Notes under the pieces: generated by a model
What the model was told of the DNA's origin: nothing
Databases searched by the model: none
The model's input: only the letters and a program-made list of their open reading frames with translations
Shown: positions 1 through 6,328 of the stretch, piece by piece
Numbering within the stretch: the stretch's first letter is position 1
How the letters are laid out: the number at the start of each line of letters is the position of its first letter
Made by a program: the position numbers and the translations under genes
Virus record (IMG/VR): IMGVR_UViG_2541047844_000011
Length of the DNA stretch: 6,328 nucleotides
From: a virus
Lineage: Duplodnaviria > Heunggongvirae > Uroviricota > Caudoviricetes
Direction: 5' to 3' (one strand)

Positions 1-3667
<3,667 letters not shown>

Positions 3668-3686
3668 ATTTTAAAACCCAAATTCG

Positions 3687-3714
3687 GGCACCAGAAATGG
3701 TGCCTTTTTTATTT
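3687..3714 (+). terminator. Rho-independent terminator-like hairpin downstream of J
   Basis: ggcacc (3687..3692), loop agaaat, ggtgcc (3699..3704), followed by tttttt at 3705..3710 and then attt. It begins 20 nt after the J stop. Confidence 0.6.
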
Positions 3715-3725
3715 GTGGAGTGAAT

Positions 3726-5747
3726 ATGGCAGTACAGATTTCAGGTGTGCTGAAAGACGGTGCAGGAAAACCGATACAGAACTGCACCATTCAGCTCAAA
3801 GCAAAACGTAACAGCACCACAGTTGTGGTGAACACGGTGGCCTCAGAAAATCCGGATGAAGCCGGACGTTACAGCATGGATGTTGAGTATGGCCAGTACA
3901 GCGTCGCCCTGCTGGTTGAAGGTTTTCCGCCTTCACATGCCGGGACCATCACCGTGTATGAGGATTCTAAGCCGGGGACATTGAATGATTTTCTGGGCGC
4001 TGCAACAGAAGATGATGTTTGTCCGGAGGCACTGTATCGTTTTGAAAAGATGGTGGAAGAGGCGGCACGCAACGCTGAAGCCGCCTCTCAGAGCGCAGCG
4101 GCAGCAAAGAAATCAGAAACAGCAGCGGCATCGTCCAGGAACGCGGCGAAAACATCAGAGACGAATGCAGGTAACAGCGCGAAAGCGGCAGCTTCTTCAA
4201 AAACAGCCGCACAAAACGCAGCAACAGCGGCAGAACGTTCAGAGACAAATGCCCGTGCGTCAGAAGAAGCCTCCGCAGACAGTGAAGAGGCTTCCCGCCG
4301 TAATGCAGAGTCAGCCGCTGAAAATGCCGGAGTCGCCACCACAAAAGCGCGGGAGGCCGCAGCAGACGCAACAAAGGCCGGGCAGAAAAAGGATGAGGCT
4401 CTGTCGGCAGCGACACGAGCTGAAAAGGCGGCAGACCGCGCAGAAGCCGCAGCGGAAGTGACTGCAGAGCCCTGTGCGAATATAGTGCCGCCGCTGCCTG
4501 ATGTGTGGATACCGTTTAACGATTCACTGGATATGATTACGGGTTTTTCGCCATCTTATAAAAAGATAGTTATTGGTGACGATGAAATAACAATGCCAGG
4601 CGACAAGATTGTTAAGTTTAAACGTGCTTCAACAGCAACGTATATTAATAAGTCCGGCCAACTCAAGCTTGCTGAAGTTGACGAACCGCGATTTGAGCGC
4701 GATGGCTTATTGATTGAAGGACAGAGGACAAATTATCTGAGGAACTCAAATAAACCAGACTCATGGACTGTTCATTCCGCACTGAATAAAACATTTGGCA
4801 CTGATAAACAGGGGTTCAATTATGCCACGGTGACACCCACGGAAAGTATAGTGGGAACAACAGGTGGCTATACTGTGCATGGTGTGGTTGCAGCAGACAG
4901 ATTCCCGCTGGCAAGTGGTGAATGTTTCACTTTTTCGTGCCGGGTTAAAGGCGCTAAAGCACGATGCAGGTTAAGAGTTTCAGTTATTATTGGTGGAACA
5001 GATACCTTCTCTGCTGACTCTTATCTTGATCTGGATACCCGGATCGCAACAGTAAGCGGTAATACATCCCTTATAACAGCCAAAGCTGAACAACAGGGCG
5101 AGTGGACCTACTATGAGGCCACTTATACAGCTAATACGGACATTGATACCGTTAACTGTGCTTTTTATATGACAAATAAAATAAGTAATGAGCCATTCTA
5201 TGATGACTCAACATTAACCATGACGACGCCGCAAATTGAACTGGGCAATACGGCATCGTCATTTATTGTAACTACAATGCCAACAACACGCGCAAGTGAT
5301 GTAGTTACTATCCCATCGCAGAATAACCTGTCAACACGGCCTTTTACGGTATTGTGCGAAGTAAGCAGGAACTGGAGTACACCGCCCAATGTTGCGCCAA
5401 GGATATTTGATGTTGGAGGGCACAGTATTGATGATAATTATTTATCGCTGGGGTTTGTTGCAACAGGAAAGATAAGCGCCAACGTAGGAATGGTTCAGCC
5501 ACAAATTGCCTCAGATGGAGAAAGGTTCATTGTGGGTGTGAGAGCTAAATCTGATTTATCAGTAAATGCAATATGCAATGGTAATTATACAACAAACCTT
5601 AATGGTAAAATATTTGGAGTTACAGCAACATCGTACCGGTTTGGTGGGCAGACCGCAGCAGGAACGCGTCATTTGTTTGGACACATCAGAAATTTCAGAG
5701 TCTGGTTTAAAGAATTAAATGACAGGCAAATCAAGGAGGCAGTATGA
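3726..5747 (+). CDS. stf: Side tail fibre protein: lambda Stf-like N-terminal domain and Ala/Ser-rich repeat shaft with a non-lambda, low-GC C-terminal distal module (673 aa from ATG 3726)
   Basis: GGAG at 3717..3720 precedes ATG 3726. The N-terminus (MAVQISGVLKDGAGKPIQNCTIQLKAKRNSTTVVVNTVASENPDEAGRYSMDVEYGQYSVALLVEGFPPSHAGTITVYEDSKPGTLNDFL) closely matches the lambda Stf (orf-401) N-terminus from memory. It is followed by degenerate Ala/Ser-rich repeats (KTSETNAGNS..., ERSETNARAS...) as in lambda Stf. From about nt 4470 (aa ~250, ...AEPCANIVPPLPDVWIPFNDS...) composition turns AT-rich and the sequence has no Stf or T4 gp37-like His-rich motifs. The extreme C-terminus (GTRHLFGHIRNFRVWFKELNDRQIKEA) resembles the end of LamG / concanavalin-A-like jelly-roll domains. 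Confidence 0.85.
   Translation: MAVQISGVLKDGAGKPIQNCTIQLKAKRNSTTVVVNTVASENPDEAGRYSMDVEYGQYSVALLVEGFPPSHAGTITVYEDSKPGTLNDFLGAATEDDVCPEALYRFEKMVEEAARNAEAASQSAAAAKKSETAAASSRNAAKTSETNAGNSAKAAASSKTAAQNAATAAERSETNARASEEASADSEEASRRNAESAAENAGVATTKAREAAADATKAGQKKDEALSAATRAEKAADRAEAAAEVTAEPCANIVPPLPDVWIPFNDSLDMITGFSPSYKKIVIGDDEITMPGDKIVKFKRASTATYINKSGQLKLAEVDEPRFERDGLLIEGQRTNYLRNSNKPDSWTVHSALNKTFGTDKQGFNYATVTPTESIVGTTGGYTVHGVVAADRFPLASGECFTFSCRVKGAKARCRLRVSVIIGGTDTFSADSYLDLDTRIATVSGNTSLITAKAEQQGEWTYYEATYTANTDIDTVNCAFYMTNKISNEPFYDDSTLTMTTPQIELGNTASSFIVTTMPTTRASDVVTIPSQNNLSTRPFTVLCEVSRNWSTPPNVAPRIFDVGGHSIDDNYLSLGFVATGKISANVGMVQPQIASDGERFIVGVRAKSDLSVNAICNGNYTTNLNGKIFGVTATSYRFGGQTAAGTRHLFGHIRNFRVWFKELNDRQIKEAV
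4080..4470 (+). repeat. Low-complexity Ala/Ser/Glu/Thr-rich coding repeats within the tail fibre shaft
   Basis: Recurring nucleotide motifs (gcagcggcagc; tcagagacgaatgc at 4156..4169 and tcagagacaaatgc at 4239..4252) encode degenerate peptide repeats. The region is open in several frames on both strands, which accounts for the overlapping ORFs in the six-frame track. Confidence 0.5.
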
Positions 5748-6022
5748 AAGATTTAACTTTGAAATTTCCTGGTAACAGAGAGTTTAAATCCTTCCTGTCA
5801 TCTCTTGACTGGGAGGAGGATGAAGACCTCCAGAATAAACTGTTAGTCGATGAAATTGGTTTCACCTACACAGAAACAGGGGTAACAGAAGAGGGAGAAC
5901 CTGTCTGTGTCCGGAATGACGGTTATTTTGTCAACATTCGCATTCTTGATGACTTGTTTGATGTTTCTGTATTCTCTGATTATGTCGTGGAGCTGGAAAC
6001 ACCGCTTCGGGAATGGAGCTGA
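5744..6022 (+). CDS. Hypothetical small acidic protein (92 aa), translationally coupled to the tail fibre gene
   Basis: The ATG at 5744 overlaps the fibre stop at 5745..5747 (ATGA), and a strong SD (aaggagg, 5733..5739) sits 4 nt upstream. The product has about 22 Asp/Glu against 8 Lys/Arg, including a DWEEDEDLQ run. It is AT-rich like the fibre C-terminal module. I do not recognise a homolog. Confidence 0.7.
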   Translation: MKDLTLKFPGNREFKSFLSSLDWEEDEDLQNKLLVDEIGFTYTETGVTEEGEPVCVRNDGYFVNIRILDDLFDVSVFSDYVVELETPLREWS

Positions 6023-6034
6023 AAGGAGGAAATA

Positions 6035-6328
6035 ATGGATATAAGCCCCTTACTTCATGCACTTTGTGCTGTGGCTGCGCAGATACTGGTTGGTCTTTTT
6101 ACCGGAAACTGGGCTTACGGAGCGATAGCCGGTTGTACGTTCTTCATTGCGCGTGAACATACCCAGGCAGAATATCGCTGGATTGAAATGTTCGGGCATG
6201 GCAAGCGAATGAATATGCCGTGGTGGGGCGGTTTTGATCCGCGAGCTTGGGATGTGGCAAGCCTGATGGATTTTGCTGTGCCGGTGGTGGCGTGTCTGCT
6301 GGTCTGGCTGTTGGTTAATCGTGGGTGA
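6035..6328 (+). CDS. Hypothetical small integral membrane protein (97 aa, 2-3 predicted transmembrane helices)
   Basis: A strong SD (aaggagga, 6023..6030) precedes the ATG at 6035, 12 nt after the upstream stop; the TGA falls at 6326..6328. Hydrophobic segments are LLHALCAVAAQILVGLFTG, WAYGAIAGCTFFIA and FAVPVVACLLVWLLV, with a Trp/charged-rich loop (EYRWIEMFGHGKRMNMPWWGGFDPRAWD). There is no lipobox and no signal-peptide-like positive N-region. I do not recognise a homolog. Confidence 0.65.
   Translation: MDISPLLHALCAVAAQILVGLFTGNWAYGAIAGCTFFIAREHTQAEYRWIEMFGHGKRMNMPWWGGFDPRAWDVASLMDFAVPVVACLLVWLLVNRG

Follow-up and report, generated by a model that had tools for sequence, protein, structure and literature searches.

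The fibre locus and the orf92 gene

The window, i.e., the whole 6328-nucleotide stretch of DNA analyzed here, represents the J–stf region of a lambdoid phage of the phage 21/1H12 type, in which orf92 is annotated only as hypothetical. It contains the following features:

3726..5747, + strand: side tail fibre, 673 aa from the ATG at 3726, with an N-terminal lambda-Stf-like anchor (PF08400), an Ala-rich coiled region and a distal lectin-type module
4482..5747, + strand: distal fibre module (aa 255–675), the constant upstream partner of orf92
5636..6328, + strand: block of 94% DNA identity to phage 21, comprising the last ~37 fibre codons, orf92 and orf97; the conserved right flank
5733..5739, + strand: Shine–Dalgarno sequence AAGGAGG, within the end of the fibre gene and 4 nt before the orf92 ATG
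5744..5747, + strand: ATGA overlap of the fibre stop and the orf92 start, an architecture typical of translational coupling
5744..6022, + strand: orf92, coding for a 92-aa acidic protein of the family phrog_1361/phrog_18574

The fibre most likely starts at the ATG at 3726 rather than at the GTG at 3720 that begins the listed ORF, since PhiR47_2 and almost every database copy have the resulting 673-aa form. Its first 158 aa display 73% identity to lambda Stf (orf-401), and in lambda tfa directly follows stf; hence, orf92 indeed occupies the slot of lambda tfa, as a preliminary description of this DNA had proposed. That description had also singled out a very acidic ORF overlapping the fibre stop, and both observations hold: the product contains 10 D, 12 E, 4 K and 4 R residues (net charge −14, pI 4.05), and its ATG (5744–5746) overlaps the fibre TGA (5745–5747) to form ATGA. 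The low-GC signature that it had attributed jointly to orf92 and the distal half of the fibre was likewise recovered, with GC fractions of 0.419 for orf92 and 0.425 for fibre positions 4500–5747, against 0.556 for fibre positions 3720–4500 and 0.527 for the gene after orf92. The overlap is suggestive of coupled translation; the stronger claim that co-translation is obligatory lacks support, as the strong Shine–Dalgarno sequence would also permit independent initiation.

The distal module of the fibre probably adopts lectin-type folds (ConA/LamG/pentraxin/galectin-like), and its central domain is homologous to the head-spike fibre Rcc01080 of the gene transfer agent RcGTA. Foldseek searches with the module recovered sialidase lectin domains, CBM40, pentraxin, LNS and galectin (E-values 3 × 10−5 to 3 × 10−3), and one relative showed a weak match to PF13385. 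The two ends of the module (aa 256–335 and 636–675) are conserved and the core (aa 336–495 and 576–635) is variable. The AF2 monomer model of the module, based on an alignment built with a distant query, has an overall pLDDT of 61 and is confident only for aa 345–508 (pLDDT 80–89), with the conserved ends modeled poorly (pLDDT 25–55). The latter is compatible, as a weak hint, with a requirement of these ends for a partner or for oligomerization. No Tfa gene adjoins the window fibre and no S74 domain (PF13884) was detected in it; thus, the usual assembly aids are absent.

A family of small acidic proteins

Homologs of orf92 occur in 159 phage records and in 77 clusters at 50% identity. The long TPR and PKD repeat proteins that surfaced in an exhaustive profile search were set aside as spurious repeat or composition matches and do not represent fusions to orf92. 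Among the PHROG profiles, orf92 matches phrog_1361 over residues 1–91 of its 92 (E = 1.6 × 10−39) and phrog_18574 (E = 1.2 × 10−5); all 33 of the diverse relatives examined match the former and 24 match the latter. Across the family, pN ranges from 0.22 to 0.37 against a pS of 0.74 to 0.98, at which synonymous sites are saturated, and a comparison of two lambdoid copies gave a pN of 0.229 and a pS of 0.926. This breadth of homologs, together with a pN far below the saturated pS, establishes orf92 as a genuine phage gene rather than a chance ORF, and the substitution pattern indicates that the family is under purifying selection. All relatives retain a net negative charge between −5 and −20; the charge that had been called striking in the window copy is therefore real, but is a trait of the entire family rather than a peculiarity of this copy.

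The AlphaFold model of orf92 is confident (pLDDT 90) and predicts a small, compact α/β domain with a strand (residues 2–8), two helices (11–20 and 27–32) and a long hairpin (33–47/53–67); the C-terminal end carries a conserved P-x-R-x-W-[AS] motif. Residues D3, D36, N64, R66, R89 and W91 are invariant. A Foldseek search of BFVD with this model returned only uncharacterized members of the same family, with no significant match to any other fold. In sequence searches of the PDB, neither the protein nor the family profile found a relative beyond chance-level matches to the RNA polymerase subunit Rpo7 and telomerase p19. Likewise, orf92 has no match in Pfam, NCBIfam or PADLOC, and no Pfam family was matched across orf92 and 32–33 of its relatives. 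The members are annotated as hypothetical in all records examined, save that of phage IrisVonRoten (“tail fiber protein”), and nothing on orf92 emerged from our search of the literature, which covered the FIG identifier, the genetics of phage 21 fibres and chaperones of LamG fibres.

Conserved association with a lectin-type fibre module

Gene-neighborhood analysis revealed a strong linkage between this family and a single type of fibre. In lambdoid, T5-like, T1-like, Seuratvirus, Dhillonvirus and environmental phages, orf92 directly follows a fibre gene whose product ends in a predicted ConA/LamG-like lectin module. The arrangement is seen in lambdoid prophages (the window, L001 and L007), a second type of E. 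coli prophage (L003–L006), the T5-like phage IrisVonRoten (bas32_0022/0023), the Seuratvirus VogelGryff and metagenomic phages (L011 and L014), and at all these loci the last ~420 aa of the upstream protein are 33–50% identical to aa 255–675 of the window fibre. Of 121 related loci, 111 show an overlap (−4 or −1) of the orf92-type start with the upstream stop, as do 14 of the 18 clusters obtained at 70% identity. Related loci carry a Shine–Dalgarno equivalent (AAGGAG or GAGG) at an unchanged position. The association also holds in the reverse direction: an orf92-type gene was present in 78 of 80 loci retrieved by the fibre module alone, the remaining two running out of DNA. The gene after orf92, in contrast to this constant upstream partner, varies: lambdoids have a membrane protein there, virulent coliphages a second fibre bearing S74, and environmental phages a small membrane protein.

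When distant relatives of the RcGTA spike fibre are compared, orf92-like genes are seen only after proteins that possess a C-terminal domain of ~150 aa with the motif “...G.I.K..YYP.RL...LQ.LT”; the R. capsulatus homolog has neither this domain nor an orf92-like gene. No orf92-like gene was detected after several distant fibres that do carry the motif (L205, L211, L224, L229 and L230), indicating that this domain does not always need orf92. Taken together, the phyletic and contextual patterns indicate that orf92 has been inherited with the distal module over deep evolutionary time.

Over shorter distances, the linkage takes a different form. Between the window and phage 21 (where the gene is CPT_21_23), the orf92 proteins are 93% identical and the fibre modules only 42%, and the high-identity DNA begins at 5636, ~37 codons before the end of the fibre gene. 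This places orf92 in a conserved right flank, with the receptor-binding core having been swapped without it. Hence, the proposal of a fibre-tip cassette stands insofar as orf92 follows the distal module through deep time, but fails for the variable core, which is exchanged independently of orf92. As orf92 is more conserved than that core, it cannot be a chaperone specific to particular tip alleles. The divergences of orf92 and the fibre module are correlated (Spearman 0.77), a value that can be explained by physical linkage alone.

Proposed function of orf92

We propose that orf92 is a dedicated partner of the lectin-type C-terminal module of side tail fibres, acting as an assembly factor or a retained partner, and assign this reading a probability of roughly 0.55. 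By analogy, it would be a functional counterpart of Tfa from a new family. Under this proposal, orf92 would be a late, fibre-linked gene sharing a late transcript with the fibre, and its initiation would be coupled to termination of the fibre ORF, such that both proteins are produced together and in proportion. The acidic α/β domain would then bind where the module is conserved and not at its variable receptor-binding core, with aa 256–335 and especially the terminal aa ~636–675 of the fibre as candidate binding regions. Such binding could aid folding or assembly of the distal domains, or their solubility, and orf92 may stay attached thereafter. It would thereby perform, as an unrelated protein, the role that Tfa has for lambda-type fibres and the intramolecular S74 chaperone has for T5-type fibres.

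The preliminary description had left the choice between a dedicated fibre chaperone and an unrelated cargo protein. The first of these is favored in the broader sense of a fibre accessory, with chaperone activity as one putative function, and the second is disfavored because orf92 is tied to one fibre module in phages with unrelated backbones, temperate and virulent alike. If orf92 were a moron, an inhibitor or a mimic of DNA that merely lies after the fibre gene, its small and very acidic product, reminiscent of Ocr/ArdA-type mimics, would be accounted for; morons are also known to occupy the region 3′ of fibre genes in lambdoids, with sitABCD nearby in related phages. Nevertheless, no sequence or fold similarity to known acidic mimics or anti-defense proteins (Ocr, ArdA and the like) was found, and in view of the constant fibre partner we regard such cargo as very improbable. 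The conserved acidity could alternatively serve a transient cap, with orf92 shielding the lectin domain from premature glycan binding, either inside the infected cell or while the virions are still fresh, and being released later. The carbohydrate-binding folds of the partner module, the capsule binding of its RcGTA relative (PMC7296036) and the precedent of caps formed by chaperones on the fibres of Alteromonas phages (cited in PMC11990801) would all suit such a mask, an idea drawn purely from analogy; since it is the conserved ends of the module that orf92 goes with, not its variable putative binding core, we consider the idea unlikely.

A somewhat better, though still doubtful, case can be made for a retained structural subunit, wherein virion-borne orf92 at the proximal fibre end would provide or stabilize a docking site for a distal fibre whose gene comes immediately after. 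A second fibre with its own S74 chaperone is encoded next to orf92, on its downstream side, in 7 of 18 clusters, among them those of T5-like phages, Seuratvirus and one type of E. coli prophage. The N-terminal motifs of these second fibres recur across unrelated backbones (“IPTDI.NLK” in L003, L015 and L016; “M.LRKDSI” in L053 and L099), suggesting a common docking partner within the cassette, and stoichiometric coupling would be apt for a structural subunit. In IrisVonRoten, Gp24 has been predicted to attach to Gp22, a prediction that leaves the orf92 homolog Gp23 out of consideration (BASEL II paper, PMC11990801). Against this adaptor role, no second fibre is encoded after orf92 in lambdoids (the window, phage 21 and L007) or in environmental phages, and yet purifying selection persists. 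A more sweeping version would place orf92 in a previously unrecognized, cross-phylum class of fibre-end subunits, which remain virion-bound on the conserved lectin-type domain as a universal socket, docking interchangeable second fibres in branched-fibre phages and elsewhere capping or tuning glycan binding. It would explain why orf92 is more conserved than the receptor-binding core that accompanies it; we put it forward tentatively, as a rather improbable extension.

Implications for fibre engineering and annotation

Side and lateral fibres with the lectin-type distal module are common in model and therapy phages of E. coli and Salmonella, including lambdoid, T1-like, T5-like, Seuratvirus and Dhillonvirus representatives, and this module is exchanged by recombination. 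If orf92 is needed for the assembly or function of these fibres, host-range fibre swaps would have to include it, with the conserved right flank (window position 5636 onwards) offering a natural crossover point. If the dedicated-partner proposal is true, it would also represent a third way of achieving fibre assembly, unrelated to the two already described, namely Tfa-type proteins and S74 intramolecular chaperones, and would supply a function for phrog_1361 and phrog_18574, both listed in PHROG as of unknown function.

Comparison with known fibre-associated systems

A close parallel in gene organization is with the Tfa type (PF02413; lambda Tfa, P2 gpG and Mu gpU), which similarly lies directly after the fibre gene with a start/stop overlap (1 nt for lambda orf-314/tfa), is expressed late, as orf92 would be, and accompanies a particular type of fibre distal end. 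Yet orf92 is half the size of Tfa and has a single domain, and whereas the C-terminal half of Tfa tracks the fibre tip, orf92 is more conserved than the receptor-binding core. The earlier judgment that it is unlike Tfa was upheld by our searches: orf92 has no Caudo_TAP (PF02413) match at E-values up to 1 and none was found in 33 relatives, while lambda Tfa, used as a positive control, scores 147.6 bits, and hhalign of the family profile against lambda Tfa gave a probability of 0.05%. A clear match to the Tfa family, which would have rendered orf92 an ordinary chaperone, was thus found by neither profile nor hhalign searches. Phage T4 gp38 and gp57A are further small, separately encoded proteins that are needed for, or attached to, distal fibre parts; gp57A is helical and gp38 is much larger, in contrast to the predicted α/β domain of orf92.

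The S74 chaperones (Peptidase_S74, PF13884), such as those of T5 pb1, the K1F endosialidase and DT57C LtfA/LtfB, resemble orf92 in that it too would aid assembly of the fibre C-terminus, and S74 fibres are often encoded beside the orf92 cassette. They differ in being intramolecular, orf92 being a separate polypeptide; PF13884 has no match in orf92, and it is easily recognized in each of the L004, L015 and L016 second fibres. We also considered the branching of the DT57C LtfA/LtfB type as the system of orf92 and rejected it, as LtfA ends in S74 and no orf92-like gene is reported there (PMC4728585).

The likeness to the RcGTA head-spike fibre Rcc01080 (GhsB; PDB 6TB9/6TBA/6TSU/6TUI), a polysaccharide-binding appendage (PMC7296036), concerns the partner fibre and not orf92. 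Fibre aa ~287–533 align with Rcc01080 residues 43–285 (E = 2.6 × 10−23, profile against PDB sequence), and aa 331–525 match NCBIfam GTA_spike_fiber (NF048003) with 66.8 bits against a curated cut-off of 36. Rcc01080 is a single subunit on the head spike, with only residues 2–10 resolved, and the R. capsulatus homolog differs from the window fibre in having no C-terminal LamG-like domain and no orf92-like neighbor. GhsA (Rcc01079) was dismissed as a relative of orf92: a PDB profile search showed no detectable similarity, and it lies upstream of the fibre, orf92 downstream.

Another counterpart is the Gp22–Gp23–Gp24 lateral fibre locus of IrisVonRoten (Bas32), a virulent T5-like phage in which a T-shaped second fibre, Gp24, follows Gp23. 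In the published model, the C-terminal domain of Gp22 is called galectin-like and the Gp23 product is given no role (PMC11990801). The distal module of Gp22 is ~43% identical to that of the window fibre, and Gp23 shares 47% identity with orf92 along with the same ATGA overlap.

Gene organization of the window

The four genes of the window all lie on one strand, with a terminator-like hairpin following the first:

185-3667, + strand: lambda-J-type central fibre gene, with the full set of J domains
3686-3705: terminator-like hairpin between J and the fibre gene, 8 pairs followed by a T-run
3720/3726-5747, + strand: side tail fibre ORF (673 aa in database copies)
5744-6022, + strand: orf92, an ORF of 92 codons
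6035-6328, + strand: orf97, an ORF of 97 codons that stops at the window's final base

The fibre start is listed as GTG 3720 in the ORF set and as ATG 3726 in PhiR47_2 and nearly all database copies; as these copies have 673 aa, ATG 3726 is probably the start. The phage 21 counterpart of the hairpin is also annotated as a terminator, which places the fibre-orf92-orf97 unit past a terminator within the late operon. No terminator-like sites were found from the fibre start to the window end, and promoter-like matches in the window showed no excess over shuffled controls. Escherichia phages 1H12 and PhiR47_2, along with several 'Lambda_ev' isolates, match the segment 5500-6328 at 100% identity, and phage 21 shows 94% identity from base 5636 onwards. 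In these records orf92 (CPT_21_23 in phage 21) carries the annotation 'hypothetical protein' and orf97 the annotation 'putative membrane protein'; the orf92 gene is already in databases, uncharacterised.

Two compositional features were seen elsewhere in the window. GC in J is about 0.60-0.63 but drops to about 0.47-0.53 over its C-terminal third (2400-3667), suggesting that the receptor-binding end of the protein is a mosaic segment too. The fibre shaft (4050-4500; GC about 0.58-0.61) has a very high AT skew (0.5) and encodes Ala/Ser/Thr/Glu-rich 'AAKTSETNA'-type repeats common to lambda Stf and the T5-like Gp22 fibre.

orf92 defines a conserved acidic family

The preliminary description of orf92 as a very acidic protein whose start overlaps the fibre stop, in the position of lambda tfa, agrees with our measurements: it has 10 Asp, 12 Glu, 4 Lys and 4 Arg (net charge -14, pI 4.05), its ATG (5744-5746) overlaps the fibre TGA (5745-5747), and a strong SD, AAGGAGG, lies at 5733-5739. 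Its low GC (0.419) is that of the distal half of the fibre (0.425), as against 0.556 in the proximal fibre and 0.527 in the next gene. The 'tfa slot' label is accurate, since the N-terminal 158 residues of the fibre share 73% identity with lambda Stf (orf-401) and in lambda tfa directly follows stf with a 1-nt overlap. The claimed dissimilarity to the tail fibre assembly protein Tfa was likewise borne out, with a profile-profile probability of 0.05% between the family and lambda Tfa, and no Caudo_TAP match (lambda Tfa control, 147.6 bits).

Its conservation shows orf92 to be a genuine gene. E. coli and Shigella contain many close homologues, an exhaustive profile search recovered 77 clusters at 50% identity, and tblastn found the gene in 159 phage records. 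Diverged copies show pN of 0.22-0.37 against a saturated pS of 0.74-0.98 (0.229 and 0.926 for two lambdoid copies). Across 33 diverse members the conserved positions are M1, D3, L6, F8, D36, G39, G60, V63, N64, R66, P87, R89 and W91, with the C-terminus nearly always one or two residues past the Trp. Acidity is common to the family (net charge -5 to -20, mean -11).

Pfam, NCBIfam and PADLOC searches with orf92 and its relatives gave no family matches; only two PHROGs, both of unknown function, match them. No solved structures related by sequence were found, nor did we find a paper giving the gene a function. Long TPR and PKD proteins from the profile search were spurious matches. In the confident AlphaFold2 model (pLDDT 90.3, pTM 0.74), residues 2-8 form a strand, 11-20 and 27-32 are helical, and 33-47/53-67 pair into a long hairpin; the C-terminal segment is modelled with no regular secondary structure, yet reaches a pLDDT of about 86 at residues 81-90.

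A Coraliomargarita (Verrucomicrobia) genome encodes an expanded family member of 322 aa (locus L232, about 2082-3050; net charge -49) that retains both ends typical of the family, 'MIYYLK' at the N-terminus and 'PANPVRIWWS' at the C-terminus. Records named for Listeria phages or Campylobacter phage C13 (OR847733, OR848352, MG065692) carry T5-like coliphage copies at 72-98% identity and are probably mislabelled or contaminated.

A constant upstream neighbour

The decisive evidence on orf92 is comparative, namely its constant upstream neighbour. A quite different E. coli prophage (Phage_portal_2 portal, protease-capsid fusion) has a 55%-identical copy preceded by a protein of 671-704 aa with a different N-terminus, the last ~430 aa of which are 45% identical to the distal module of the window fibre (aa 255-675). 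The same module-then-orf92 arrangement recurs in another lambdoid type (L007), the T5-like IrisVonRoten (bas32_0022/0023), the Seuratvirus VogelGryff and the metagenomic phages L014 and L011, with L014 showing 33% identity across the entire module. Of 121 loci, 111 have an orf92 start that overlaps the stop of the gene before it, the overlap being 4 nt (ATGA) or 1 nt (TAATG/TGATG), and the overlap is kept in 14 of the 18 clusters these loci form at 70% identity. In the reverse test, with the fibre module as sole query, 78 of 80 viral loci had an orf92-like gene; the remaining two stop too soon to show whether one follows.

The gene 3' of orf92 varies between phage types: orf97 in lambdoids (71 of 201 loci, confined to that context), a second fibre bearing an S74 intramolecular chaperone of its own in T5-like phages, Seuratvirus and the other E. 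coli prophage type, and a small membrane protein in environmental phages. The orf97 product is a predicted two-helix membrane protein of 97 aa (6035-6328, +) that belongs to phrog_1443 and matches nothing in Pfam, NCBIfam or PADLOC. Its copies in the 71 loci are 76-100% identical, T5-like, T1-like and environmental loci lack it, and in related phages sitABCD follows on the opposite strand; orf97 is perhaps a moron, for instance an exclusion factor.

The partner is a putative lectin-like fibre module

Residues 331-525 of the fibre match the NCBIfam 'GTA_spike_fiber' domain (66.8 bits; cut-off 36), and the module profile matches the RcGTA head spike fibre Rcc01080 (PDB 6TB9 and others; E 2.6e-23, fibre aa ~287-533). 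Rcc01080, present as one subunit per spike, mediates capsule binding, and only its residues 2-10 were resolved (PMC7296036). The AlphaFold2 model of the module (aa 255-675) is confident only in a central domain (pLDDT 80-89 at aa ~345-508), with both conserved ends poorly modelled; Foldseek related it to ConA-like lectin folds, including sialidase lectin domains, CBM40, pentraxin, laminin-G/neurexin LNS and galectin. The published IrisVonRoten model gives a galectin-like C-terminal domain to Gp22 and no role to Gp23, the orf92 homologue (PMC11990801).

All upstream partners, including very distant ones, share one kind of C-terminal strand motif ('...GGQT..G.RHLFGHIRNFR.W.K.L.D.Q.KE' in coliphages, '...G.I.K..YYP.RL....LQ.LT' in environmental phages). 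Among 45 genomic Rcc01080 relatives, orf92-like genes occur only after proteins that run on for about 145-170 residues and finish with this motif (in Microbacteriaceae, Saccharibacteria, Azospirillum, Xanthobacter, Coraliomargarita and Methylopumilus), and these distant versions bear the family marks 'M..YYL+' at the N-terminus and 'P.R.W' at the C-terminus. The R. capsulatus homologue extends just 40 residues past the shared domain and has no orf92-like gene; some relatives with the motif also lack one. This distribution links orf92 to the terminal lectin-like domain, an association that outside the coliphage group is frequent, not absolute. At L209 and L215 a motif-bearing fibre is directly followed by another fibre-like ORF starting with the junction motif 'TFTRSSVGTYVD', giving tandem lectin-type fibres with no orf92-like gene.

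Between subgroups, module identity is 76-85% at aa 256-335, about 27% at 336-495, about 50% at 496-575, low at 576-635 and 61-65% at 636-675. Compared with phage 21, orf92 is 93% identical and the module 42%, and the high-identity DNA block starts at 5636, about fibre aa 639. By these comparisons orf92 is part of the conserved right flank, with the receptor-binding core exchanged without it, so that any fibre-orf92 interaction must involve conserved parts of the module. The earlier proposal of a travelling fibre-orf92 cassette is refined in this way. Fibre and orf92 divergence correlate (Spearman 0.77, 78 pairs), as expected from linkage alone, which is no proof of function.

Possible roles of orf92

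Neither of the known assembly aids accompanies the window fibre: no Tfa gene lies next to it, and it contains no S74 domain. What does follow it every time is the coupled orf92 gene. The most economical reading, to which we give a probability of roughly 0.55, is that orf92 would be a stoichiometric accessory protein of the terminal lectin-type domain, acting as an assembly or folding factor or as a retained partner. The main rival, in which orf92 would stay on as an adaptor that serves a second fibre, draws on the second fibres that come after orf92 in many virulent phages and on N-terminal motifs these share across unrelated backbones; we consider it unlikely, as lambdoids and environmental phages retain orf92 without a second fibre. 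The shared motifs, 'T.IPTDI.NLK' in three unrelated backbones (L003/L004, about 6340; L015, about 4267; L016, about 5289) and 'M.LRKDSI/TI' in L053, L099 and L100, hint that the cassette contains a shared docking site. A transient glycan-masking cap seems less probable still, and unrelated cargo, as floated in the preliminary description, very improbable.

If the accessory reading holds, orf92 would represent a new, unrelated family doing a known fibre-accessory job, spread across phage families and bacterial phyla; it is directly testable and relevant to fibre engineering. In Tfa the C-terminal half is generally regarded as matched to the tip of the fibre; orf92 differs, since any interaction it has must be with conserved parts of the module.
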